Source: an uncultured Acidobacteriota bacterium (lineage in GTDB: Bacteria > Acidobacteriota > Thermoanaerobaculia > Multivoradales > UBA5704). From it: a stretch of DNA of 64,000 nt. The DNA lies in assembly GCA_963698025.1 (NCBI GenBank), contig OY969112.1, forward strand, positions 6,629,101 through 6,693,100, given 5' to 3'. Made by a program: the position numbers and the translations under genes. The notes beneath the pieces were generated by a model. The model worked only from the letters and a program-made list of their open reading frames with translations, did no database searches and was not told the DNA's origin. This document shows positions 18,925 through 61,234 of the stretch, in pieces. Numbering within the stretch: position 1 is the stretch's first letter; each line of letters begins with the position of its first letter.

Positions 18925-19989
18925 TTGCGCGCCCCACCCTCTCCCTTGCCGCCCATCTCCGTCCCCCTGCACGCTCCCGAGCTGGCGCCCGGCCTGTGGG
19001 TCCAGGGGCCGGAGGTATCGATTCGCGCCGCTCGCGGCCGCGTCGTGCTGGTGGACTTCTGGGAATCCACCTGCGTCAACTGCCTGCGCACGCTGCCATA
19101 TCTCAAGGCCTGGCACGAGCGCTACGCCGGCCGCGGGCTCGCGATCGTGGGCGTGCACACGCCGGAATTCGAGCTCTCCGCCGATCCCGCCCTGGTCGCG
19201 GCGGCCGTGCGGGACGAGGGGATCCCCTACTCCGTGCTGCTCGACGCCGGCCGTGCCACCTGGGACCGCTTCGCCAACCACTACTGGCCGGCCAAGTATC
19301 TGATCGACGCCCGCGGCTACCTGCGCTACGAACGGTTCGGCGAGGGGGCCTACGGCGAGACCGAGGACTGGATTCAGCGCCTGCTGCGTGAGGCCGGGGA
19401 CACGGGCGCGATGCCTGCCATCCTCGAGCCAGTGCGCGCCGAGGACCGGCCCGGGGCGGTCTGCCATCCGGCCACCCGCGAGACCCACGTCGGCTTCCAT
19501 CGCGGCCGGCTGCTGGCGGCCGAGGGGTACCGGCCGAGCGAGGAGGTGAGCCATCGCCAGCGCGAGGAGGGTCCGGCGCCGCCGGGGATGTTCGCCGTCC
19601 GTGGCCGCTGGCTCCACGAGGCCGAGTTCCTGGAGACCCGCGAGCCGGGAGCGGAGCTGGATCTGGTCTGCGACGCGGCCGGGGTAAACCTGGTGCTGGC
19701 GCCGGCGGGGGAGTTGGAGATCGAAGTGGATGGCGCCCCGGTCGCGACGGCGGAGCGTGGGGCCGACCTGGTGGAGCGCGACGGCCGCACCTTCGCCGTC
19801 TGGGAACGCGGACGGATGGTTCGTCTCGTCGACTCCGGCGTATTTCGCCGCCGGCGCCTGGTGCTGCGGTTTCCGCGGGTGGGGGTGCGGGCCTACGTGT
19901 TCAGCTTCTCGACGTGCGTGCCCTCATCACCCCGGCCCTCTTCTCCCGACCCGGGAGAAGAGGGGGGCTCTCCGTCGAAGGCTTCGTAG
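18925..19989 (+). CDS. Thioredoxin-fold (TlpA/redoxin-like) thiol-disulfide oxidoreductase with a C-terminal extension
   Basis: VVLVDFWESTCVNCLRTLPYL has the CxxC motif. TTG start in the ORF track, so the start is uncertain. The last ~25 codons run into the palindromic element at 19921-20059. Confidence 0.6.
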   Translation: MRAPPSPLPPISVPLHAPELAPGLWVQGPEVSIRAARGRVVLVDFWESTCVNCLRTLPYLKAWHERYAGRGLAIVGVHTPEFELSADPALVAAAVRDEGIPYSVLLDAGRATWDRFANHYWPAKYLIDARGYLRYERFGEGAYGETEDWIQRLLREAGDTGAMPAILEPVRAEDRPGAVCHPATRETHVGFHRGRLLAAEGYRPSEEVSHRQREEGPAPPGMFAVRGRWLHEAEFLETREPGAELDLVCDAAGVNLVLAPAGELEIEVDGAPVATAERGADLVERDGRTFAVWERGRMVRLVDSGVFRRRRLVLRFPRVGVRAYVFSFSTCVPSSPRPSSPDPGEEGGSPSKAS

Positions 19990-25263: not shown

Positions 25264-25470
25264 CTACAGCTCGAAAGGCTCACACCCCTCGAACGTGCCT
25301 CGCCGTCGAATGATCTCCTCGAGATTGGGGATCTGCTGCGACACCCTTGTTAGCTGATTCAGCCAATCCTCTCCTCTCTTGGGACGGTTCTCCCGCAGGG
25401 CACGGATATCCTCAGGCGTGGTCGGGATATCCCTTTCGAGATTGAGGAGGTCAGGTTTTCTCGAAGTCAT
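25264..25470 (-). CDS. Hypothetical small protein (68 aa) overlapping the 3' end of the nucleotidyltransferase gene
   Basis: ATG at 25470 overlaps the last 20 nt of 25451..25981 in another frame. MTSRKPDLLNLERDIPTTPEDIRALRENRPKRGEDWLNQ... Coding-like codon usage. Sits in a low-GC islet. Confidence 0.3.
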   Translation of the reverse strand: MTSRKPDLLNLERDIPTTPEDIRALRENRPKRGEDWLNQLTRVSQQIPNLEEIIRRRGTFEGCEPFEL

Positions 25471-25981
25471 CGAACCGGTCCCGCATGCCCTGTCGATCAA
25501 AGTAATCCCTGATCTGAAGGCGGTCAACTCCCGGCAGGTTCAAGAGAAACCGGACATCCGCCATGTCCTGGAACGCTCGCGCCGGATCGTTCTTCATCGC
25601 CGTGATCTTCAACGCAGCCAGATGCTCGGGCGTCGGCACGCGAATCTGAAGGCCACTCGGACCTGTCGTGGTCCTGCACGCGGCAAAGAGCTCCTGACTC
25701 GTTTCGCCACTTACGTAAACGAAATCGAGACTTCCCCAGAGTAGCAGGTCGGGATGGACATGGTTCGAATAACCGCTGGATCTGTGGAGCGTCTTATACC
25801 CATGAGATTCCAGGAACCGGATCAGATCGTCCTGGGCCGAGAATTCGACGATGAAGTCGAGATCCAGGGTCGTCCGTGGCAGTCCATAGGCAATGAGCGC
25901 CACGCCGCCGATCACGGCATAGCGGAATCCTTTTTCTTCAATAAAACCCGAGACGACGCCGAGGACGGTAGCGAAATCCAA
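25451..25981 (-). CDS. Minimal nucleotidyltransferase-fold protein (Pol-beta superfamily)
   Basis: AVIGGVALIAYGLPRTTLDLDFIV is the G[GS]x9-13DxD NTase motif. 176 aa. Lower GC than the flanks. Confidence 0.55.
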   Translation of the reverse strand: MDFATVLGVVSGFIEEKGFRYAVIGGVALIAYGLPRTTLDLDFIVEFSAQDDLIRFLESHGYKTLHRSSGYSNHVHPDLLLWGSLDFVYVSGETSQELFAACRTTTGPSGLQIRVPTPEHLAALKITAMKNDPARAFQDMADVRFLLNLPGVDRLQIRDYFDRQGMRDRFDDFEKT

Positions 25982-51133: not shown

Positions 51134-51287
51134 CCTCATCACCCCGGCCCTCTTCTCCCGCCCCCTCCCGCCTCCCTCACCGGGAGAAGAGGGGAGACCC
51201 CTTCGGGGGTTTTTCTTTGGGCGGGGGTTCCCCTCTCCCGGTGAGGGAGGGTGGGAGGGGACGGGAGAGGGGCCAGGGGTGAGGGTT
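51134..51287. repeat. Composite palindromic (REP/MITE-like) element, copy B (the same family as 19921..20059)
   Basis: ccctcatcaccccggccctcttctcccg ... caccgggagaagagggg ... cccctctcccggtgaggg ... gagaggggccaggggtgagggt. The arms are shared with copy A and the interior differs. Confidence 0.6.
51196..51218 (+). terminator. Terminator-like hairpin inside the palindromic element (GACCCC-UUCG-GGGGU followed by UUUUUCUUU)
   Basis: A 5-6-bp GC stem with a UUCG tetraloop followed by a U-run on the plus strand. There is no annotated plus-strand gene upstream, so the target transcript is unknown. Confidence 0.3.
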
Positions 51288-52498
51288 TACGGGCAGCCAA
51301 CCCCGGACACGCTCGCCACCGCGGCGCAGGCGTCCACCTCGGCGACGGGGTCGGCGGCGATCGGGCGGGCGGTCTTGTGGAGGATCGCCGCGATCTCGGA
51401 CGGGGTGAGCTTCGGGTTCTTTTCGAGCAGCAGGGCGGCGATGCCCGAGACCTCGGCCGCGGCGGCCGAGCTGCCGGAGAAGAGGTCGTAGGTGCCGTGG
51501 GGCATGGTGGTCAGGATGTCCACCCCCGGCGCGGCCAGCGTGGCGAGGGAATGCCCGGCCGGCACGGAGGGGGGGCCGCTGAGGTCGTCGCTCCCCATGA
51601 CGCCGATCACCCCCTTGTAGCTGGCGGGGAAGTCCTGCGCGGCAGCGCCGCCGCCGCCGGCGGCCACCACCACGATCCCCTTGGCCAGGGCGTGGTCGAT
51701 CAGCTCGCCGAGCAACGGATCCGCGGGGCCGGACAGGCTGAAGTTGAGCACCTGGGCGCCGCGGGCGATGGCGTAGTCCACCGCCTTGGCCAGCGTATAG
51801 CTGTTGCACAGCGCCTGGCGCGCCCCCGGCGGCTGCTCCCAGCAGGCCTTGAGGGCGTAGATCTCCGCCTGTGGCGCGGCGCCGGCGATCCCCACGTCGT
51901 TGTTCGCCGTGGCCGCGATCACCCCGGCGACGGCGGTGCCGTGGATGTCGCTGGTGAAGCTGCGCTCCCCCCGGTCGACGAAGTTCTGCGCCTTTTTCAC
52001 CCGCTCCCGCAGGTCGGGATGATCGAAGTCGACGCCGGTGTCCACCACGGCGATCTTCACCCCCTTGCCGGTCGCCCAGCGGTGCGCCTGGTCGAGCCGG
52101 AGCGTCGTCGAGCCGTGCTGGAGGTTGGCGTACGGATCGCCCCCCTGCGTCCGGAAGGTCTCGACGGTCTGCGCGATGCGCACTCTGGGGTCCGAGGAGA
52201 GGCGGCGGACGATCTCGGGCGCCGAGCCGCCGGGCGGCACCTGGAAGACGACGCACTGCTCGCCGAGCGACTCCATCGTCCAGGCATAGACGAGGGTCAG
52301 GCGGTAGCGCTGCGCGAGCGCCGCGGTGTTCTGCTCCCAGATCACGGGCAGGGCCTTGGGGTAGGTCACCATCACCTGCCGGTCGGTCGGGGGCGGAACG
52401 GCTGCAGCGCGACCGCCGTCCGCGGCGGGGGCGCTGGCGCAACCGAGGACGAGGAGCAGGGCGCCGGCGAGCGCGGCGCCACGGAGCCGGCCGGTCAC
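51287..52498 (-). CDS. Secreted subtilisin-like S8 family serine peptidase
   Basis: VKIAVVDTGVDFDHPDL (Asp), HGTAVAGVIAA (His) and GSSAAAAEVSGIAALL (Ser). Signal peptide. Start overlaps the upstream anti-sigma gene by 4 nt. Confidence 0.85.
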   Translation of the reverse strand: MTGRLRGAALAGALLLVLGCASAPAADGGRAAAVPPPTDRQVMVTYPKALPVIWEQNTAALAQRYRLTLVYAWTMESLGEQCVVFQVPPGGSAPEIVRRLSSDPRVRIAQTVETFRTQGGDPYANLQHGSTTLRLDQAHRWATGKGVKIAVVDTGVDFDHPDLRERVKKAQNFVDRGERSFTSDIHGTAVAGVIAATANNDVGIAGAAPQAEIYALKACWEQPPGARQALCNSYTLAKAVDYAIARGAQVLNFSLSGPADPLLGELIDHALAKGIVVVAAGGGGAAAQDFPASYKGVIGVMGSDDLSGPPSVPAGHSLATLAAPGVDILTTMPHGTYDLFSGSSAAAAEVSGIAALLLEKNPKLTPSEIAAILHKTARPIAADPVAEVDACAAVASVSGVGCP

Positions 52499-53244
52499 CG
52501 GATGGCCTTCCCCGGATCCCCCATCGCCGGCTCGGCAAGCATCACCTGGGGCTCGGAGCGCAGGCGCGCCAGCACGACCCCGGCCGGATCGCCGGCCGGA
52601 ACCTCGATCGCTTGAACCTCGACCGTATAAGCGCCGAGCCGCGAGGGGCCGGCGATGATCTCCCCACGGATGCCGAGCAGGAGCCCGCGGATTTCCCGCT
52701 CCGTCGCCTGTGGCGAGAACATCACCCGCAGACGGAGGGTCGGCACCGGCGGCGCGGCCGGATCGGAGAGGGTGCGGTAGACGGCTCCGGCAGCCGGGGT
52801 GCCGGCGGCCGGCGCGGCGGGAGAGACCGGGCCGGCGCGCAGGGCGTCCCAGGCCAGGAATCCCACCAGCAGCACGATCACGGCCGCCTGCGCCACCAGG
52901 GCCCCGCGCAGCGGGCGGGGGGTCGCCTGGACGAGCGACCGGAAGGGTGCGAGGAGAGGCCAGCCGCCGGCCTGTTGCCGCTCCTCGCGCTCGCTCTCGT
53001 CGACGCGGGCGAGCATGCGCTGGAATTGGATGGGGTGGGGAGAGGGGGCCACCTCGCCGGCGCCGGCGATCTCCGCGGCCGTCCGCCGGCAGACCCGCTC
53101 CTCTTGCTGGCAGCGCGGGCAGGCCGCGAGGTGGGCCTCCACCCGTTCCCGCTCCTGCTGGGCGAGGCTGCCGTTGACGTACCAGGGGAGCAGCTCCCAG
53201 ACGCGCTGGTGGCTCCGCTCGCCGTGATCCTCCCGTTCTCGCAT
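52495..53244 (-). CDS. Zinc-finger (ZAS-type) anti-sigma factor, membrane-spanning
   Basis: HxxxCxxC motif (EAHLAACPRCQQE) in the N-terminal cytoplasmic domain, one TM helix (AVIVLLVGFLAWDAL), and a C-terminal extracytoplasmic domain. Lies between the ECF sigma factor and the S8 protease. Confidence 0.65.
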   Translation of the reverse strand: MREREDHGERSHQRVWELLPWYVNGSLAQQERERVEAHLAACPRCQQEERVCRRTAAEIAGAGEVAPSPHPIQFQRMLARVDESEREERQQAGGWPLLAPFRSLVQATPRPLRGALVAQAAVIVLLVGFLAWDALRAGPVSPAAPAAGTPAAGAVYRTLSDPAAPPVPTLRLRVMFSPQATEREIRGLLLGIRGEIIAGPSRLGAYTVEVQAIEVPAGDPAGVVLARLRSEPQVMLAEPAMGDPGKAIR

Positions 53245-53258
53245 GGTCTCAGGGTCTC

Positions 53259-53855
53259 CTAGCCCGCGAATCCCGAGACGCCCAGCTCCGGCAGCAGCGC
53301 CTTCAGGCGCCGGCGGGCGTGGAACATCCGGGTCTTCACCGTGTTCACCGGGCAGCCCACGATCTCCGCGATCTCGGAGTAGGCGAGCCCGTAATAATAG
53401 GTCAGCTCGACGACCGCCCGCTGGTCGGCCGAGAGGGAGCCGAGCGCCTGGCCCAGCACGCCCGCGAGCTCCCGCCGCGCCGCCAGGCTCTCGGGCTCGT
53501 CGCGGTCCACCGGCTCCGGGCGGTCCGGGTCGGAGTCCTGCTCCTCGGTCCGCCGGGCCAGCGCCTTGAGCGCCTTGTGGTAGGCGATGCCGAAGATCCA
53601 GGTCGAGAGGCGCGAGCGGCCGTCGAAGCTCGCGGCCCCCTTCCAGATGGCGAGCATGACGTCGTTGAGCACCTCTTCCACCAGCTCCGCCCGGCGGGTC
53701 ATCTTCAGCAGGTAGCCGAACAGGCGCCGGTAATAGAGATGGTAGAGCGCCTCGAAGGCCTTACGGTCCTTCGCGGCCACCTTCCGAAGCAGGGTCAGCT
53801 CGTCGGGCGAAGACATTGCGCTGAGTATGTTCCCAAACCGGGAGGGATGGTTCAA
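53259..53855 (-). CDS. RNA polymerase ECF-type sigma-70 factor
   Basis: The sigma-2 region (LLRKVAAKDRKAFEALYHLYYRRLFGYL...) and the sigma-4 HTH (LSADQRAVVELTYYYGLAYSEIAEIVGCPVNTVKTRMFHARRRL). TTG start at 53855; an alternative ATG at 53816. Confidence 0.85.
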   Translation of the reverse strand: MNHPSRFGNILSAMSSPDELTLLRKVAAKDRKAFEALYHLYYRRLFGYLLKMTRRAELVEEVLNDVMLAIWKGAASFDGRSRLSTWIFGIAYHKALKALARRTEEQDSDPDRPEPVDRDEPESLAARRELAGVLGQALGSLSADQRAVVELTYYYGLAYSEIAEIVGCPVNTVKTRMFHARRRLKALLPELGVSGFAG

Positions 53856-53882: not shown

Positions 53883-53998
53883 CCCGGGATTGAAATCCCG
53901 GGCTACTCACGGCCGTCCCATCCGGGACTTCCCAAAACCCTTTGCCTCCGAAGCCCCGGGAGGGGCGACTGTCGGTAGCCCGGGATTTCAATCCCGGG
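53883..53998. repeat. Pair of inverted 25-nt elements (gcccgggattgaaatcccgggctac) flanking 76 bp; MITE-like, and each terminus is itself palindromic
   Basis: cccgggattgaaatcccggg at 53883-53902 and cccgggatttcaatcccggg at 53979-53998 (the exact reverse complement, including the flanking gc...ctac). Lies between the ECF sigma start and the cytochrome-like lipoprotein gene. Confidence 0.6.
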
Positions 53999-55513: not shown

Positions 55514-56284
55514 ATGGCCGATCTCCGCCTGCGGGTGATGTCCTACAACGTCGGGGGGCATGGCGCGCGGTGGTCGCGGCGGCACGTGGAGCGCCTGGCG
55601 AAGACGATCTCCGAGGCCGGGCCCGACGTGGTGGGGCTGCAGGAGGTCCACCGCGGCACCCGGCAGTCCCGGCTCGAGGACCAGGCCGAGGCGCTCGGCC
55701 GCCTGACCGGGATGGCGGTCCACTTCGGCAAGAGCTTCGCCATGGACGGCGGCGGCGAGTTCGGCAACGCCGTGCTCACCCGCGGCGAGCTGCGCTCCGC
55801 GGTGATCCACCCGCTCCCCGGACCCGGCGAGCCGCGGACGCTCCTCCACACCCGCGTCGCGCTGGCGGGCTCCGAGATCCACTTCTACGTCACCCACCTC
55901 GCCGCCTGGGGGCGGTGGGGGAGAGCGGCACGGAGTGTGCAAATTGGAGGACTCGTCGAGCAGCTCAAGCAGTCTGAAGGACCCTTTGTCATGGTGGGGG
56001 ACCTGAACGCCCCTCCGAACGCCCCGGAGATCGGGACCCTGATGGCCGCCGAGCTGTTCCGGATGTGTGGCGACGACGTTGCATTTACCCATCGGTACAT
56101 GCGGCAGCGTATCGACTACATCTTCGCCGACCCCGGCTGGACGACCGCCTCGTATCAGGTGATCCGGCAGGGACCCTCGGATCACTGGCCCGTGCTGGTC
56201 GAGATGTGCCGGCAGGCCGGGAGCGAAGAGGCAGGAGCGCTGACCGGGAGGTCGAGAGATGAGTCTTCCGCCCCGCGGGAGTGA
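55514..56284 (+). CDS. Endonuclease/exonuclease/phosphatase (EEP) family protein
   Basis: LRVMSYNVGGHG ... VVGLQEV ... GEFGNAVLTR ... VGDLNAP ... GPSDHWPVLVEM has the EEP catalytic motifs. Confidence 0.8.
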   Translation: MADLRLRVMSYNVGGHGARWSRRHVERLAKTISEAGPDVVGLQEVHRGTRQSRLEDQAEALGRLTGMAVHFGKSFAMDGGGEFGNAVLTRGELRSAVIHPLPGPGEPRTLLHTRVALAGSEIHFYVTHLAAWGRWGRAARSVQIGGLVEQLKQSEGPFVMVGDLNAPPNAPEIGTLMAAELFRMCGDDVAFTHRYMRQRIDYIFADPGWTTASYQVIRQGPSDHWPVLVEMCRQAGSEEAGALTGRSRDESSAPRE

Positions 56285-57617
56285 TGAGAAGAAGTCCCGG
56301 AAAGCCGGGAAGGTGGCGAATTCCCGTCCGATGCGATGGGCGGCCCGCAAGATCGAGGTCTCGCATCTGGAGGTGGTCCTCTGCGCCTTCCTCGTGCTCT
56401 TCATGTTCCTCATGATCTGGTCGATCCTGCACGAGCGCCAGTCGCACGTGCGCGTGCCGGACATCGCCCGGTTCGAGGAGGCCCTGCCGTCGATCGCCAA
56501 CCTCGGCGGCTCGCCGATCCTGGCGGGCAACGCCGTCCGGCTGCTGCAGAACGGCGACGGCTTCTTCCCCCCCTTCCTGGCCGACGTCGCGGCGGCCCGC
56601 GCCAGCATCCACCTCGAGACCTACGTCTGGTGGCAGGGGGAGATCTGCGAGCGCGTCGCCCGGGCGCTCGCCGGCAAGGCGCGCCAGGGGGTCGAGGTCC
56701 GCGTCACCCTCGACGCCACCGGCTCCCACCGGGGGGACGACAAGCTGTTCGACATGATGAAAGACGCGGGGGTGAAGATCGCCCTCTATCACCCCTTCCG
56801 GCCGCGGGACCTCGGGCTGCTCAACAACCGCACCCACCGGAAGCTGGCCATCTTCGACGGCAAGGTGGCCTACGTCTTCGGCCACGGCATCGCCGAGGAG
56901 TGGACCGGCAACGGCCAGGACGCCAAGCACTGGCGCGACAGCGGCGCGCGCCTCGAGGGGCCGATCGTCAACAGCGTCCAGGCCGTCTTCGCCCAGAACT
57001 GGATCGACGAGACCGGCGAGGTGCTGGCGGGGGAGAAGTACTTTCCGCACCTCGCGGCCGCCGGAACGGTGCGCGCGCACATGGTGGCGAGCGCCCCGCG
57101 CGGCGGCGTCTCCGAGATGGAGCTGATCGACAAGCTGGCGATCGCCACGGCGCAGAAGGAGCTGATCATCTCGAACCCCTACTTCATCCCCGACCAGGAA
57201 CTGGTGGACCTGATCACCAACGCCGTCCAGCGCGGGGTGCGGGTACGCCTGATGATCCCCGGGCAGATCACCGACAGCGCGGTGGTCCGCCACGCCGGCC
57301 ACAAGCAGTTCCAGGCCCTGCTCGACAAAGGGGTGGAGATCTATGAGTTCGAGCCCACCCTCAGCCATCAGAAGATCATGATCATCGACGGCCTCTGGTC
57401 GTTCGTCGGCTCGACCAACTTCGACGACCGCTCGCTCGACACCAACGACGAGGCGAGCGTCGGCCTGATCGACCGCCAGGTCGCCGGCGAGCTCAAGGCG
57501 GCCTTCGAGGCCGACCTCGCGCGCTGCCAGCGGCTGGACGCCCGCACCTGGAGCCAGCGCTCCCTCTGGCACAAGTTCGAGGACAGCGCCTCGTACCTGC
57601 TCAACGAGCAACTCTGA
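56259..57617 (+). CDS. cls: Cardiolipin synthase (PLD superfamily), copy 1
   Basis: N-terminal TM helix, then two HKD motifs (THRKLAIFDG; SHQKIMIIDGLWSFVGSTNFDDRS). An alternative start at 56331 (MRWAARKIEV) avoids the 26-nt overlap with the EEP gene. Confidence 0.85.
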   Translation: MSLPPRGSDEKKSRKAGKVANSRPMRWAARKIEVSHLEVVLCAFLVLFMFLMIWSILHERQSHVRVPDIARFEEALPSIANLGGSPILAGNAVRLLQNGDGFFPPFLADVAAARASIHLETYVWWQGEICERVARALAGKARQGVEVRVTLDATGSHRGDDKLFDMMKDAGVKIALYHPFRPRDLGLLNNRTHRKLAIFDGKVAYVFGHGIAEEWTGNGQDAKHWRDSGARLEGPIVNSVQAVFAQNWIDETGEVLAGEKYFPHLAAAGTVRAHMVASAPRGGVSEMELIDKLAIATAQKELIISNPYFIPDQELVDLITNAVQRGVRVRLMIPGQITDSAVVRHAGHKQFQALLDKGVEIYEFEPTLSHQKIMIIDGLWSFVGSTNFDDRSLDTNDEASVGLIDRQVAGELKAAFEADLARCQRLDARTWSQRSLWHKFEDSASYLLNEQL

Positions 57618-57636
57618 GACCTGGACCGAATACGGC

Positions 57637-58905
57637 ATGATCGAAATCCATCTCTGGCTGTTCATCGCGCTGATCCTGGTCATCCTCTTGCTGGGGACGA
57701 TGCTGTGGAACAACCTGCGCGAGCGGAAGTTCCACCTCCGCGTGCCCGACCTCGACTGCTTCGAGCAGGCCCTCCCCTCGATCGCCGGCATGACCAAGGC
57801 CATTCTGATGGACGGCAACCGCGCCGAGATCGTCCAGAACGGCGAGCTCTTCACCGCGCTCCTCGAATCGATCGCCGCGGCCAAGGTGACGATCAACTTC
57901 GAGACCTACGTCTGGTGGACCGGCGACATCTGCGCCCAACTCGCGGAGGCCTTCGCCGCCCGGGCTCGCGATGGGCTCGAGGTGCGGGTGATGGTCGACG
58001 CCATGGGCGCGAAGAAGATGAAGCCCCGGCTGCGGAAGCTGATGACGGAGGCGGGGGTCACGCTGGTCCGCTACCATCCTCTCCGCCTGAAAGACATCGG
58101 CCAGCTCAACAAGCGCACCCACCGCAAGCTCGCCGTCTTCGACGGCATCACGGCCTACATCTGCGGCCACGGCGTGGCCAGCCAGTGGACCGGCAATGCC
58201 GAGGACAAAAGACACTGGCGCGACACCGGCGTGCGGCTCCACGGGCCGGTGGTCAACGCCGTGCAGTCGGTCTTCACTCAGCACTGGGTCGAGGAGACCG
58301 GCGAGGTGCTGGTGGGGGAGAAGTACTTCCCGGCCATCGAGCTGCAGGGGGAGCTGAAGATGCACGTCCTCGCCGGCGCCCCGCTCGGCGGCGTCTCCGA
58401 CCTCGAGCTGATGTTCAAGATGTCGCTCGCCACCGCGCAGAAAGAGATCGTGATCCAGAACCCCTACTTCATCGCCGACGAGCAGACGACGTCGCTCCTC
58501 AAGCGCGCGGTCAAGCGCGGGGTGGAGGTGAAGATCATGGTGCCCGGCCAGGTCACCGACAGCCCGATCGTCAACCACGCCGGCCACCGCCACTTCAGCG
58601 AGATGCTCAACGCCGGGGTGAGGATCTTCTGTTTCGAACGGACGATGATCCATCAGAAGATCATGATCATCGACGGTCTCTGGTCGCACGTCGGCTCGAC
58701 GAACCTCGACTCCCGCTCCTTCAACATCAACGAGGAGGCCGGCGTCGGCATCATCGACGAGGGGATCGCCGCCGAGCTCAAGGCCGCCTTCGAGAACGAC
58801 CTCGAGGACTGCCAGGAGATGAAGGCCGAGGCCTGGGACCACAAGTACCATCTCTGGCACCGGACGCTCGACCGCGCGTGCTACCTGCTCAGCGGCCAGC
58901 TCTGA
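57637..58905 (+). CDS. cls: Cardiolipin synthase (PLD superfamily), copy 2 (tandem paralog)
   Basis: MIEIHLWLFIALILVILLLG (TM helix), then HKD motifs (THRKLAVFDG; IHQKIMIIDGLWSHVGSTNLDSRS). Collinear with copy 1 throughout, at about 60% identity by eye. Confidence 0.9.
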   Translation: MIEIHLWLFIALILVILLLGTMLWNNLRERKFHLRVPDLDCFEQALPSIAGMTKAILMDGNRAEIVQNGELFTALLESIAAAKVTINFETYVWWTGDICAQLAEAFAARARDGLEVRVMVDAMGAKKMKPRLRKLMTEAGVTLVRYHPLRLKDIGQLNKRTHRKLAVFDGITAYICGHGVASQWTGNAEDKRHWRDTGVRLHGPVVNAVQSVFTQHWVEETGEVLVGEKYFPAIELQGELKMHVLAGAPLGGVSDLELMFKMSLATAQKEIVIQNPYFIADEQTTSLLKRAVKRGVEVKIMVPGQVTDSPIVNHAGHRHFSEMLNAGVRIFCFERTMIHQKIMIIDGLWSHVGSTNLDSRSFNINEEAGVGIIDEGIAAELKAAFENDLEDCQEMKAEAWDHKYHLWHRTLDRACYLLSGQL

Positions 58906-58942: not shown

Positions 58943-59509
58943 ATGGCCTGGATCCGCACCGTCGCGCCGGGAGAAGCCACCGGCCTGCTGAAGCGCCTCT
59001 ACGGCGAGGCCGTGGCGCGGGCGGGGAAGGTGTTCAACGTCCTGCGCATCCAGAGCCTCCGGCCGGAGGTTCTGCGGGCGGGCATCGCCCTCTACAAGGA
59101 GCTGATGCACTCGCCGCGCAGCCCGTTGAGCCGGGCGCAGCGGGAGATGATCGCGGTCGCCGTCTCCCGCGCCAACGGCTGCCACTACTGAACCGGCTCG
59201 CATGCGGACGACCTCCGGGTAGAGGTCGCGGATCAGGGTGAAAGCGGGGAGGCGCTGGTGGCGGCGGTGAAAGACGATTACCGCCAGGCGGAGCTGACCG
59301 CCGCCGACCGCGCCATGCTCGACTTCGCCGTCAAGCTGGCCGGCGACCCCCGCGCGATGACCCGCGGCGACGTCGAGGCCCTGCGCGCCGCCGGCCTCAG
59401 CGATACGGCGATCCACGACGTGGTCCAGATCACCGGTTTCTTCTCCTACTACAACCGGCTTGCCGACGGGCTGGGGATCGACCCCGAGCCACCAGCGCCT
59501 GAAGGCTGA
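58943..59509 (+). CDS. Carboxymuconolactone decarboxylase/AhpD-like protein interrupted by a single in-frame TGA (59189-59191) at the second Cys of the CxxC motif. Candidate selenoprotein (Sec read-through); alternatively a nonsense pseudogene.
   Basis: ORFs 58943..59191 and 59258..59509 are in the same frame, separated only by the TGA. The joined translation is ...MIAVAVSRANGCHY[TGA]TGSHADDLRVEVADQGESGEALVAAVKDDYRQAELTAADRAMLDFAVKLAGDP..., i.e. NGC-HY-U-TGS-H against the family motif NGCxYCxxxH (AhpD Cys-x-x-Cys...His). Confidence 0.5.
59209..59228 (+). other. Candidate bacterial SECIS-like hairpin 17 nt downstream of the in-frame UGA
   Basis: CGACCUC-CGGGUA-GAGGUCG: a 7-bp stem with a 6-nt apical loop containing GGGU. 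The position (17 nt after UGA) is within the range reported for bacterial SECIS elements. Confidence 0.3.
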
Positions 59510-59635
59510 TCCGTCCGGCTGGGAGGACGGTAGTGGCCTGGATTGGACACAGGTCCCGTCGAGTCCCCCCGCGCCGGCCGCGGGAATGAATTTTGCGAAG
59601 GAAGGGGGAGTCACCTTTTACAAAAGGAGGGGTCG

Positions 59636-61234
59636 ATGCCGGTCTCGCTTCGTTCGGGTACCTCCAGCGTGCTGGCCTTCGCCTGCGCCCTGGCCTTCGT
59701 CCCTGGAGCTTTCGGACAGGTCAACCCGCCGGAGCCCCCGAGGATCGCCGCCGGTGAAGCGGTCAACGTCGAGGTCAAGATCGTCCCCTTCTATGCCGTC
59801 GACGCCAAGGGGGATCCCGTCTACGACCTCAAGCCCGAAGAGGTCGAGCTGCGGGTGGGAGGGGCGACCGTTCCGACCGAGTCCCTGGACCGCTACGCGC
59901 TCTCCCCCTCCGGGCGCGCCGGTGCTCAGGCGTCTCCGCTGACGCCGACCCCCTCGCGGACCGTCTTTTTCCTCTTCGACCTGGCGTTCTCTTCGCCCAC
60001 CGGCTTCAACACGGACAAGCGGCTCGCCGCCCGGCTGGTCCAGAGCTGGCCCACCGGCGACCGGCTCTTCCTGATCGTTCACGGCACCCGGGCGGGCATG
60101 GAACGGCGGCTGGGCCCGGTGCCGCCCGACGCCGCAGGGAAGAAGGAGCTCCTCGCCGCCATCGAGGCCCTCGAGCCGGAGATCAAGCGCGTCGAGCTGC
60201 AGGCAAATCCGACCGCCGATTTCGGCCCCCCTGCCGGGAAGAATCCGGAATACGTGATGTACTCCGCCTTCGACGGCATCCAGGGGACCATGCGCGGCGA
60301 GTACCACAACGTGGCTCGGGATCTCGCGAGCTCGCTCGGGGATTTCGCCTCCGAACTGCGCGGGATCTCCGGACCCAAGCTGCTGATGCTCTTCTCGCAG
60401 GGGGTGGACGACAGCCTCTACTTCAAGGGGGACGAGGCGAGCGGCAGCGAAGAGAGCGCCGCGATGGCCGAATGGCGCTCGCCGCCGCTGGTGGACCGGT
60501 TCCGGGATCCGCTCACCGCCATCGCCGAGTCGGGCACGGTGGCCCTGCTGGTCAACACCGACCGCGGCAAGAGGGCCGACGCCGACGCGGTCCTCCGCCA
60601 CATGGCGAAGACCACGGGCGGCCTGTACGTCGAGGGACGGGACCCGAGGGATCTCGAAAAGCGCATCGCCGGCTCGACCACGGCCTACTACGAGGCGGCC
60701 TTCCATCCCTCGGCTCTGCTGCTGCGGAAGACCCGCGCCGAGGTGGAAGTCGTCATTCGCCGGCCAGGGGTCCGGGCCTGGGCACCTGCCGCGGTAGCGA
60801 CGCGGGAGTCCTACCGGACGTTGAGCGCCTTCGAGAAGCGGCGGCTGGTGATCGACCTCGTCGCCGGTGGCGCCGAAGCCCAGCACGCCCACGGCTCGGT
60901 GCGGCTGAACGTCCAGGAGCTCGGCGGCAAGGTCGTCGGCCGGCAGGAGTCCGGGCAGTCCCGGCTGCATTTCCAGGCGGATTGGCCGGCGAGCCTCGCG
61001 GCCCGCCCGCTCGATCTCTACAACGTCCTGCTGGCGCCTCCCGAAGGGGGGAACAAGGGGAAGGTCCTCCGCTTCGACCGGCGGGAGGGGACCATGGCCG
61101 CCGAGCGCGGCGGGCTCGAAACCGCGCTGGAAGAAGGGCAGGGCGCCCTGGTCTGGGGGATTCTCGCCGTCGATCCCGAGACCGAGCAGGCCTGGGTCCG
61201 CCGGCTGATGCTCAGGGCCGGATCACCACCTTGA
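59636..61234 (+). CDS. Hypothetical secreted protein (possibly a VWA-like fold)
   Basis: Start at internal Met 32 (MPVSLRSGTSSVLAFACALAFVPGAFGQ, a signal peptide) with an AAGGAGGGG Shine-Dalgarno sequence. TVFFLFDLAFSSPTGF resembles a degenerate MIDAS-containing beta-strand. The domain call is weak. Confidence 0.45.
   Translation: MPVSLRSGTSSVLAFACALAFVPGAFGQVNPPEPPRIAAGEAVNVEVKIVPFYAVDAKGDPVYDLKPEEVELRVGGATVPTESLDRYALSPSGRAGAQASPLTPTPSRTVFFLFDLAFSSPTGFNTDKRLAARLVQSWPTGDRLFLIVHGTRAGMERRLGPVPPDAAGKKELLAAIEALEPEIKRVELQANPTADFGPPAGKNPEYVMYSAFDGIQGTMRGEYHNVARDLASSLGDFASELRGISGPKLLMLFSQGVDDSLYFKGDEASGSEESAAMAEWRSPPLVDRFRDPLTAIAESGTVALLVNTDRGKRADADAVLRHMAKTTGGLYVEGRDPRDLEKRIAGSTTAYYEAAFHPSALLLRKTRAEVEVVIRRPGVRAWAPAAVATRESYRTLSAFEKRRLVIDLVAGGAEAQHAHGSVRLNVQELGGKVVGRQESGQSRLHFQADWPASLAARPLDLYNVLLAPPEGGNKGKVLRFDRREGTMAAERGGLETALEEGQGALVWGILAVDPETEQAWVRRLMLRAGSPP

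Follow-up and report, generated by a model that had tools for sequence, protein, structure and literature searches.

A gene for an AhpD-like oxidoreductase, at positions 58943..59509 (+) of a 64,000-nucleotide stretch of contig OY969112.1 from an uncultured Acidobacteriota bacterium (the window), is interrupted by one in-frame UGA, at the codon for the second cysteine of its redox motif. A first-pass annotation, made from the letters of the window alone, had proposed that the gene is a candidate selenoprotein. Its observation was confirmed in every detail, and its interpretation is supported by comparison with related loci. The UGA recurs at the same codon in orthologs whose downstream halves evolve as coding sequence, and it is followed at a fixed distance by a conserved hairpin that most likely, judging from sequence comparison, is a bacterial selenocysteine insertion sequence (SECIS) directing selenocysteine (Sec) at the UGA. 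The probability that 58943..59509 is a genuine Sec-encoding gene, specifying one intact AhpD-like oxidoreductase with a CxxU motif (U for Sec), is put at about 0.92.

An AhpD-like gene with a single in-frame UGA

The two open reading frames (ORFs) 58943..59191 and 59258..59509 (+) share a frame, with an offset of 315 nt. Translated as one, 58943-59509 yields 188 sense positions and ends in a TGA at 59507-59509. Its one internal stop is the TGA at 59189-59191, which bears out the claim that this codon is the only interruption of a same-frame ORF pair. The peptide around the internal stop reads ...SRANGCHY, then the stop, then directly TGSHADD... (in the longer reading, TGSHADDLRVEV...). Both the start MAWIRT... 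and the C-terminus ...GLGIDPEP are kept in orthologs. The G+C content of the gene region is 67%. When in-frame TGA codons throughout the window were screened by the G+C content of third and second codon positions (GC3 and GC2), only that at 59189 had true coding composition on both flanks (GC3 0.98/0.88, GC2 0.48/0.47), and this read-through screen of the window turned up no further credible selenoprotein gene candidate. The features of the gene are as follows.

58943..59509 (+): complete selenoprotein gene, AhpD-like or "peroxidase-related enzyme" (TIGR01926; Pfam CMD), 188 codons including the putative UGA-Sec codon 83, plus the terminal TGA
59144..59146 (+): Glu68 codon GAG, equivalent to Glu118 of the Mycobacterium tuberculosis AhpD proton relay (BLASTP to 1gu9/1knc)
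59180..59182 (+): Cys80 codon TGC, first Cys of CxxU, equivalent to AhpD Cys130
59189..59191 (+): in-frame UGA, the probable Sec83 codon, equivalent to AhpD Cys133; TGA in aligned orthologs
59201..59203 (+): His87 codon CAT, equivalent to AhpD His137
59209..59228 (+): SECIS-type hairpin, with stem CGACCUC at 59209-59215, loop CGGGUA at 59216-59221 and stem GAGGUCG at 59222-59228
59507..59509 (+): terminal TGA stop of the gene, without an equivalent hairpin context

For profile searches, Cys was modeled at the stop position. The protein matches Pfam CMD (PF02627, E = 8.7e-15) and NCBIfam TIGR01926 (154.5 bits against a cutoff of 81.8, residues 2-183 covering profile positions 1-177 of 178), so that its earlier assignment to the carboxymuconolactone-decarboxylase/AhpD-like family holds. 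It also exceeds the cutoff of the AhpD domain model TIGR00778 (ahpD_dom; 49.9 bits against 27.8). The cutoff of TIGR00777, which describes bona fide AhpD, is missed by far (23.9 against 191.95 bits), as is that of NF041238 (72.5 against 175 bits, over profile positions 151-337 only, of 357). By these profile scores the protein is AhpD-like at its active site but no AhpD ortholog, and no member of NF041238.

Alignment to solved structures places the UGA on a catalytic position. The nearest structures, 6k40, 3c1l, 2oyo, 2pfx and 2prr, are of the TIGR01926/COG2128 type (E = 1e-21 to 1e-26), and the C-x-x-C-x-x-x-H of all five aligns with C80, the stop at 83 and H87. A BLASTP comparison with M. 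tuberculosis AhpD, for which the query sequence was identical to PDB 1gu9/1knc, equates E68 with Glu118, C80 with Cys130, U83 with Cys133 and H87 with His137, the proton-relay and catalytic residues of AhpD (PMC3141380). The alignment thus points to a relay of the form E68-C80-x-x-U83-x-x-x-H87, and the proposal that the TGA falls on the second catalytic Cys agrees with both the CxxC of the TIGR01926-type structures and AhpD Cys133.

Conservation of the UGA codon and of the downstream hairpin

A scan of a genome collection, with one genome per species, yielded 80 related loci (numbered with a prefix L). The aligned codon is TGA in 26 of these (L001-L023, L027, L029, L045), and all 26 are otherwise open throughout, free of further stops and frameshifts, and end in the usual C-terminus ...GLGI[DE]PEP. 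The metagenome-assembled genomes (MAGs) that carry these loci are labeled Thermoanaerobaculia/Acidobacteriota, Polyangiaceae, Planctomycetota, Gemmatimonadota/Longimicrobiales and Actinomycetes. The remaining 54 loci, more distant homologs, have TGC or TGT at this codon and come from MAGs labeled mostly as Alphaproteobacteria, Gaiellales and other Actinomycetes, or Chloroflexi-type lineages. The window shares flanking genes with L001, L003, L009, L010 and L013, and this synteny identifies those five loci as orthologs. The check that had been suggested, whether orthologs carry Cys or TGA, therefore has a clear outcome, with TGA at the same codon in orthologs and Cys codons farther away, and additional inactivating mutations are absent from the TGA-bearing orthologs.

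Protein databases conceal this continuity. Among the matches listed, all those with more than about 60% identity span just 43-54% of the query, and the database fragments that were inspected either end at ...CHY or start right after the TGA. Two entries, P0001 and P0003, are seemingly full-length with Trp at the Sec site, and the DNA underlying both is TGA. P0003 corresponds to L083 1056-1607 (NCBI GCA_025491055.1) and P0001 to L085 104-682 (JGI 3300056878); with these the TGA sequences besides the window number 28. The Trp evidently comes from a gene caller table that reads TGA as Trp, a practice that hides selenoproteins as seemingly complete Trp-containing proteins.

The half of the gene beyond the UGA behaves as coding sequence. 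The main clade comprises 23 sequences, the window plus L001-L022, and in these the pairwise differences at first, second and third codon positions are 0.239/0.200/0.417 upstream of the TGA and 0.245/0.242/0.433 downstream. Because the downstream pattern is the same as the upstream one, it was concluded that the downstream half is translated and under purifying selection. On this ground a pseudogene is excluded, and a real stop at the UGA is very improbable.

The hairpin CGACCUC-CGGGUA-GAGGUCG begins 17 nt past the TGA, within the coding sequence for D-D-L-R-V-E-V. It is present in the single-sequence minimum-energy fold, in keeping with its placement at 59209-59228 by the first-pass annotation. 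More telling is an alignment of 60 nt from the TGA in the 23 main-clade sequences, from which RNAalifold independently yielded exactly the 7-bp helix named there. Within this alignment 98.1% of helix cells are paired; shifting the 3' partners by 1-3 columns lowers the figure to 24-50%. Pair 21-40 covaries, with C-G in 14 and G-C in 6 sequences, and so does pair 24-37, with C-G in 20, U-A in 2 and U-G in 1. None of 500 shuffles reached the observed covariation score, a comparison subject to the same caveat on related sequences as the codon tests below. A conserved downstream structure among TGA-bearing orthologs, which had been named as a check on the proposal, is thus present, with covariation.

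The hairpin also fits the published consensus model of bacterial SECIS elements (bSECIS), which specifies a loop of 3-9 nt, a stem of 4-16 bp, a minimum free energy (MFE) of -7.5 kcal/mol or below, a G in the first two loop positions, usually as G[G/U], and a UGA-to-loop spacing of 16-37 nt (PMC13188914). The window hairpin satisfies the model throughout, with a loop of 6 nt (CGGGUA), a stem of 7 bp, a spacing of 24 nt and an MFE of -10.4 kcal/mol. The spacing is 24 nt in all main-clade orthologs too, the loop starts with CGG or CGU in 23/23 main-clade sequences, and 24 of the 27 Sec forms pass every element of the model. These constraints uphold the earlier suggestion that the position of the hairpin and its GGGU-containing loop are consistent with a bacterial SECIS. 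Like the E. coli fdhF-type SECIS and the bSECIS consensus (Zhang and Gladyshev 2005, via PMC13188914), the element is a stem-loop directly 3' of the UGA inside the ORF, with a small apical loop carrying G then G/U near its 5' side, a spacing within 16-37 nt and a stability below -7.5 kcal/mol. Its primary sequence, however, is unrelated to fdhF, and a bulged U was not seen; the stem is perfect and short, at 7 bp, and lacks a clear lower helix, and SelB binding is only predicted.

Several observations weigh against the SECIS and Sec reading. All of the evidence is computational. The single-sequence fold is no better than that of shuffled sequence on 65 nt (z = -1.1, with 27/200 shuffles as stable), and z = -2.0 on 131 nt was rated not significant; given that the region is 67% G+C, single-sequence structure weighs little. 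Stems of at least 6 bp in the allowed zone occur in 25/54 Cys forms (46%, GC-rich) as against 26/26 Sec forms. Since chance hairpins are so common in Cys forms, the bare presence of a hairpin is a weak discriminator, and it is the fixed position and fixed loop that are informative. The divergent Sec forms L023, L029 and L045 miss the -7.5 kcal/mol threshold. No SECIS-type Rfam family matched the window at gathering threshold, a result uninformative for bacterial SECIS elements, and a search of 59100-59350 at E values up to 10 gave chance miRNA matches only.

The stem peptide D-D-L-R-x-E-V is moreover itself conserved, and part of the stem conservation could therefore lie at the protein level. 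Codon choice speaks to this point. The stem Leu is CUC in 22/22 cases, whereas CUC makes up 49% of Leu codons in the rest of these genes (p = 3e-7); for the stem Val, 19 sequences use GUC, 2 use GUU and none uses GUG, which has a share of 41% elsewhere (p = 5e-4); and the loop Arg is CGG or CGU in 23/23, compared with 43% elsewhere, CGC never being used although it is the commonest Arg codon elsewhere (p = 8e-9). These p-values are approximate, the Fisher tests having taken related sequences as independent, and the pairwise third-position divergence of about 0.43 mitigates the kinship but does not remove it. The synonymous biases are those that the pairing and the G[G/U] loop rule call for, and nothing at the protein level can account for them.

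The Sec-decoding trait of the host genome, in turn, is inferred; it was not seen in the window or in the related loci. ARAGORN found no tRNA in the 64-kb window, and a search of the 26 TGA-bearing loci gave no tRNA-Sec, both being uninformative on whole genomes. A Pfam scan of 40 window genes found no SelA, SelB or SelD domain, and the E. coli SelA, SelB and SelD proteins had no tblastn match in either the window or the 80 related loci (about 520 kb); both are likewise uninformative on the whole genome. A search of the literature on Thermoanaerobaculia and selenocysteine found nothing relevant, and the Acidobacteria phylum has been credited with four selenoproteins in three families (PMC1794560).

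Decoding of the UGA and its alternatives

By analogy with the bacterial Sec pathway (summarized in PMC13188914) and with the AhpD mechanism, decoding might proceed as follows. During translation the hairpin 59209-59228, whose apical loop begins 24 nt past the UGA, would act as a bacterial SECIS and recruit a complex of SelB, GTP and Sec-tRNA(Sec), so that the UGA at 59189-59191 would be read as selenocysteine rather than as a stop, and the ribosome would run on to the true stop at 59507-59509. Sec83 would then replace the second Cys of the C-x-x-C redox motif, and Glu68, Cys80, Tyr82 and His87 may supply an AhpD-type proton relay. If the chemistry is that of AhpD (PMC3141380), Glu68, His87 and Tyr82 would activate the Cys80/Sec83 pair, which would cycle between selenol/thiol and selenenylsulfide. 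The enzyme may in this way reduce a peroxiredoxin-type partner, or peroxide directly.

The alternative that survives best, although it is improbable, is that the UGA is read through without Sec, either as Cys by a tRNA-Sec-like tRNA-Cys(UCA), with or without a SelB paralogue, or by an acidobacterial allo-tRNA acting as opal suppressor, or as Trp by near-cognate read-through. Systems of the first two kinds have been described, namely selC* tRNA-Cys accompanied by selB*, and allo-tRNAs that suppress opal codons, many of these on acidobacterial contigs (PMC5389517), and the Sec machinery of the window's own genome is only predicted. The reported selC* genes, however, come from Firmicutes, Thermodesulfobacteria, Nitrospirae and Proteobacteria, not from Acidobacteria, and they are accompanied by complete Sec systems (PMC5389517). 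A general suppressor would have no use for a SECIS-type hairpin at a fixed position and would not maintain one, and with 23 of the 44 genes called in the window ending in TGA it would be toxic; for the insertion of Cys a TGC codon is simpler, and is what the more distant homologs use. The hairpin, finally, fits the SelB-type bSECIS model.

TGA is in fact the commonest ordinary stop in the window, the gene under study included among the 23, which implies that the code is not reassigned genome-wide. A reassigned code, with TGA as Trp or Gly, was considered and rejected on these counts. The terminal TGA at 59507-59509, lacking an equivalent hairpin, shows that TGA is also an ordinary stop in this very gene.

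Real termination at the UGA is less likely again. The product would then be an N-terminal fragment of 82 residues, perhaps alongside a C-terminal protein started independently at GTG 59258, and the hairpin would be coincidental, regulatory or a cause of pausing. Both ORFs do have start codons and coding composition, and databases store the halves as separate proteins. The 66 nt between the ORFs (59192-59257), however, are in frame and conserved as protein, catalytic His87 included, and a real stop at the UGA would split the CxxC...H active site. In the solved homologs one chain runs through both halves, and the starts of database C-terminal fragments vary, falling just past the TGA and not at a conserved start codon.

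A nonsense-mutated pseudogene, that is, a former Cys-encoding AhpD-like gene inactivated by a change of TGC or TGT to TGA, needs only one transversion, and gene callers do split the gene into two ORFs. It is effectively refuted by the comparative data, since the same TGA stands in 26 loci across several phyla and in two metagenome contigs with no other lesions, the two halves share one substitution pattern by codon position, and beyond the TGA, at a fixed position, stands a hairpin that shows covariation and forced synonymous codons. The recurrence of the codon and the downstream coding pattern also vindicate the first-pass judgment that a chance nonsense mutation is improbable here. A sequencing or assembly error, for which a single-base difference from TGC would be enough, is refuted by the same TGA in independent assemblies from many studies.

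Known relatives, genomic setting and significance

AhpD-like proteins had been called a recognized bacterial selenoprotein family, and the literature agrees: the family was first described from Sargasso Sea and Global Ocean Sampling (GOS) metagenomes and is listed in two surveys (PMC13188914, PMC2398784), the one naming "AhpD-like protein, TIGR01926, CxxU" among established prokaryotic selenoprotein families (PMC13188914) and the other counting 299 AhpD-like 1 genes (COG2128, CxxU) in GOS data (PMC2398784). The window gene is thus an ordinary selenoprotein, in that its family, motif and decoding strategy have already been described and it involves no new mechanism. Like the known CxxU members it belongs to the same profile family, well above cutoff, has Sec for the second Cys, consists of a single domain of about 185 aa and carries its SECIS in the coding sequence directly after the UGA. 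Unlike the earlier members, which came from marine plankton, Clostridia and Deltaproteobacteria, the present ones come from soil-type and other Thermoanaerobaculia/Acidobacteriota MAGs. The clade of the window also has its own SECIS, CGACCUC-CGGGNN-GAGGUCG, within a clade-specific DDLRxEV, and the database entries of the close relatives examined are split or mis-translated.

With M. tuberculosis AhpD (Rv2429; 1knc/1gu9; TIGR00777) the protein shares the spacing Glu-x11-Cys-x2-Cys/Sec-x3-His, the local motif AVSxxNGC and presumably the same dithiol chemistry, as selenol/thiol in the window protein. Identity amounts to only about 33%, over 81 residues, and the window protein is of the COG2128/YciW-like topology class, as are 6k40 and 2oyo. 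Where AhpD has His132 the window protein has Tyr82, which corresponds to Tyr50 of Pseudomonas aeruginosa PA0269. There is also no ahpC adjoining the gene, whose neighbors are PLD-like genes and a secreted protein of unknown function. NF041238 (AhpD_rel_CFYUT) has a C-[FH]-Y-U-T type motif like that of the window protein (C-H-Y-U-T) and of L012 (C-F-Y-U-T); unlike NF041238, which has about 357 residues, the window protein matches its C-terminal half only.

In a neighbor-joining tree built with the Sec column and the hairpin peptide masked, all Sec forms together with one Cys form (L037) make up a clade with a bootstrap of 100/100, and the MAGs that carry members of this Sec clade are assigned to five or more phyla. 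Its SECIS elements are of more than one kind, as Sec forms outside the main clade have other hairpins. In type A the loop lies at +24 inside the clade-specific DDLRxEV, and in type B, ACGG[GA]G-CGGGU-CUCCGU, it lies at +16 inside HHGAGLR (L023 3244-3303, L083, L084). L027 (91-150), likewise outside the main clade, has a hairpin CAUGGAG-AGGAU-CUCCAUG. The monophyly of types A and B has bootstrap values of just 36% and 60%, so that the branching order within the Sec clade is weakly supported. On these grounds it is conceivable, though we hold it only tentatively, that at least two non-homologous SECIS solutions exist within one Sec clade, either because the SECIS was rebuilt elsewhere after a single conversion of Cys to Sec or because the conversion occurred twice, that gene and SECIS moved between phyla as a unit, and that seven residues beside the active site are dictated by the RNA element. 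If true, the family would offer a compact case, found in nature, of how SECIS elements turn over and how RNA structure can shape the sequence of a protein.

One sequence stands apart. L084 99-647 (JGI 3300039392, a 997-nt contig; P0002) has AGA (Arg) where its relatives have TGA, with the type B hairpin intact. A single base separates AGA from TGA. The contig is short, and an error in the reads or the assembly may have introduced the difference; otherwise the Sec codon may have been lost very recently.

The gene is flanked by genes for an Exo_endo_phos protein, two PLD-like proteins, a 563-aa protein of unknown function and two ADH proteins. The following features belong to this setting or to the search for a redox partner.

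55514-56284 (+): Exo_endo_phos family protein, in a tight same-strand cluster upstream of the gene (55514-58905)
56259-57617 and 57637-58905 (+): tandem PLD-like paralogues, the second ending 37 nt before the selenoprotein start
59543-61234 (+): protein of about 530-560 aa, unmatched in Pfam; translation probably starts at ATG 59637
18925-19989 (+): AhpC/TSA (peroxiredoxin-like) plus Thioredoxin_10 protein of 354 aa, the only peroxiredoxin-type gene found in the window

PLD genes lie beside the AhpD-like gene also in L001, L009, L010 and L013. In L003 the AhpD-like gene is followed by a 68%-identical homolog of the 59543-61234 protein, which in the window has an AAGGAGG Shine-Dalgarno sequence before ATG 59637 and an N-terminus resembling a signal peptide (MPVSLRSGTSSVLAFACALAFVPGAFGQ). 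A terminator-like hairpin (59568-59584) stands between the selenoprotein gene and this downstream gene. The peroxiredoxin-type gene is about 39 kb from the AhpD-like gene and is therefore not linked to it.

Two further observations concern the window at large. Its sole Rfam match at gathering threshold is an Acido-Lenti-1 RNA at 53883-53929 (+), with 38 bits against a threshold of 37 and E = 4.8e-5. This RNA is directly upstream of, and divergent from, a minus-strand cluster of genes for an extracytoplasmic function (ECF) sigma factor (53259-53855), a zf-HC2 anti-sigma-like protein (52495-53244) and a subtilase (51287-52498), and it supports an acidobacterial origin of the window. At 25451-25981 (-) a 176-aa ORF matches the C-terminal part only of the AbiEii nucleotidyltransferase toxin of a type IV toxin-antitoxin system (E = 5.7e-8) and may be a truncated or degenerate defense gene.

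Public protein collections list this gene, and those close relatives that were examined, either as a pair of fragments or with Trp at the catalytic position, and recognition of the Sec codon restores a complete redox enzyme. Together, these results imply Sec decoding, and hence a selenium requirement, in a Thermoanaerobaculia-like acidobacterium and in many related soil and sediment MAGs, a requirement that would be relevant to predicting the physiology of these organisms and to the composition of media for their cultivation.

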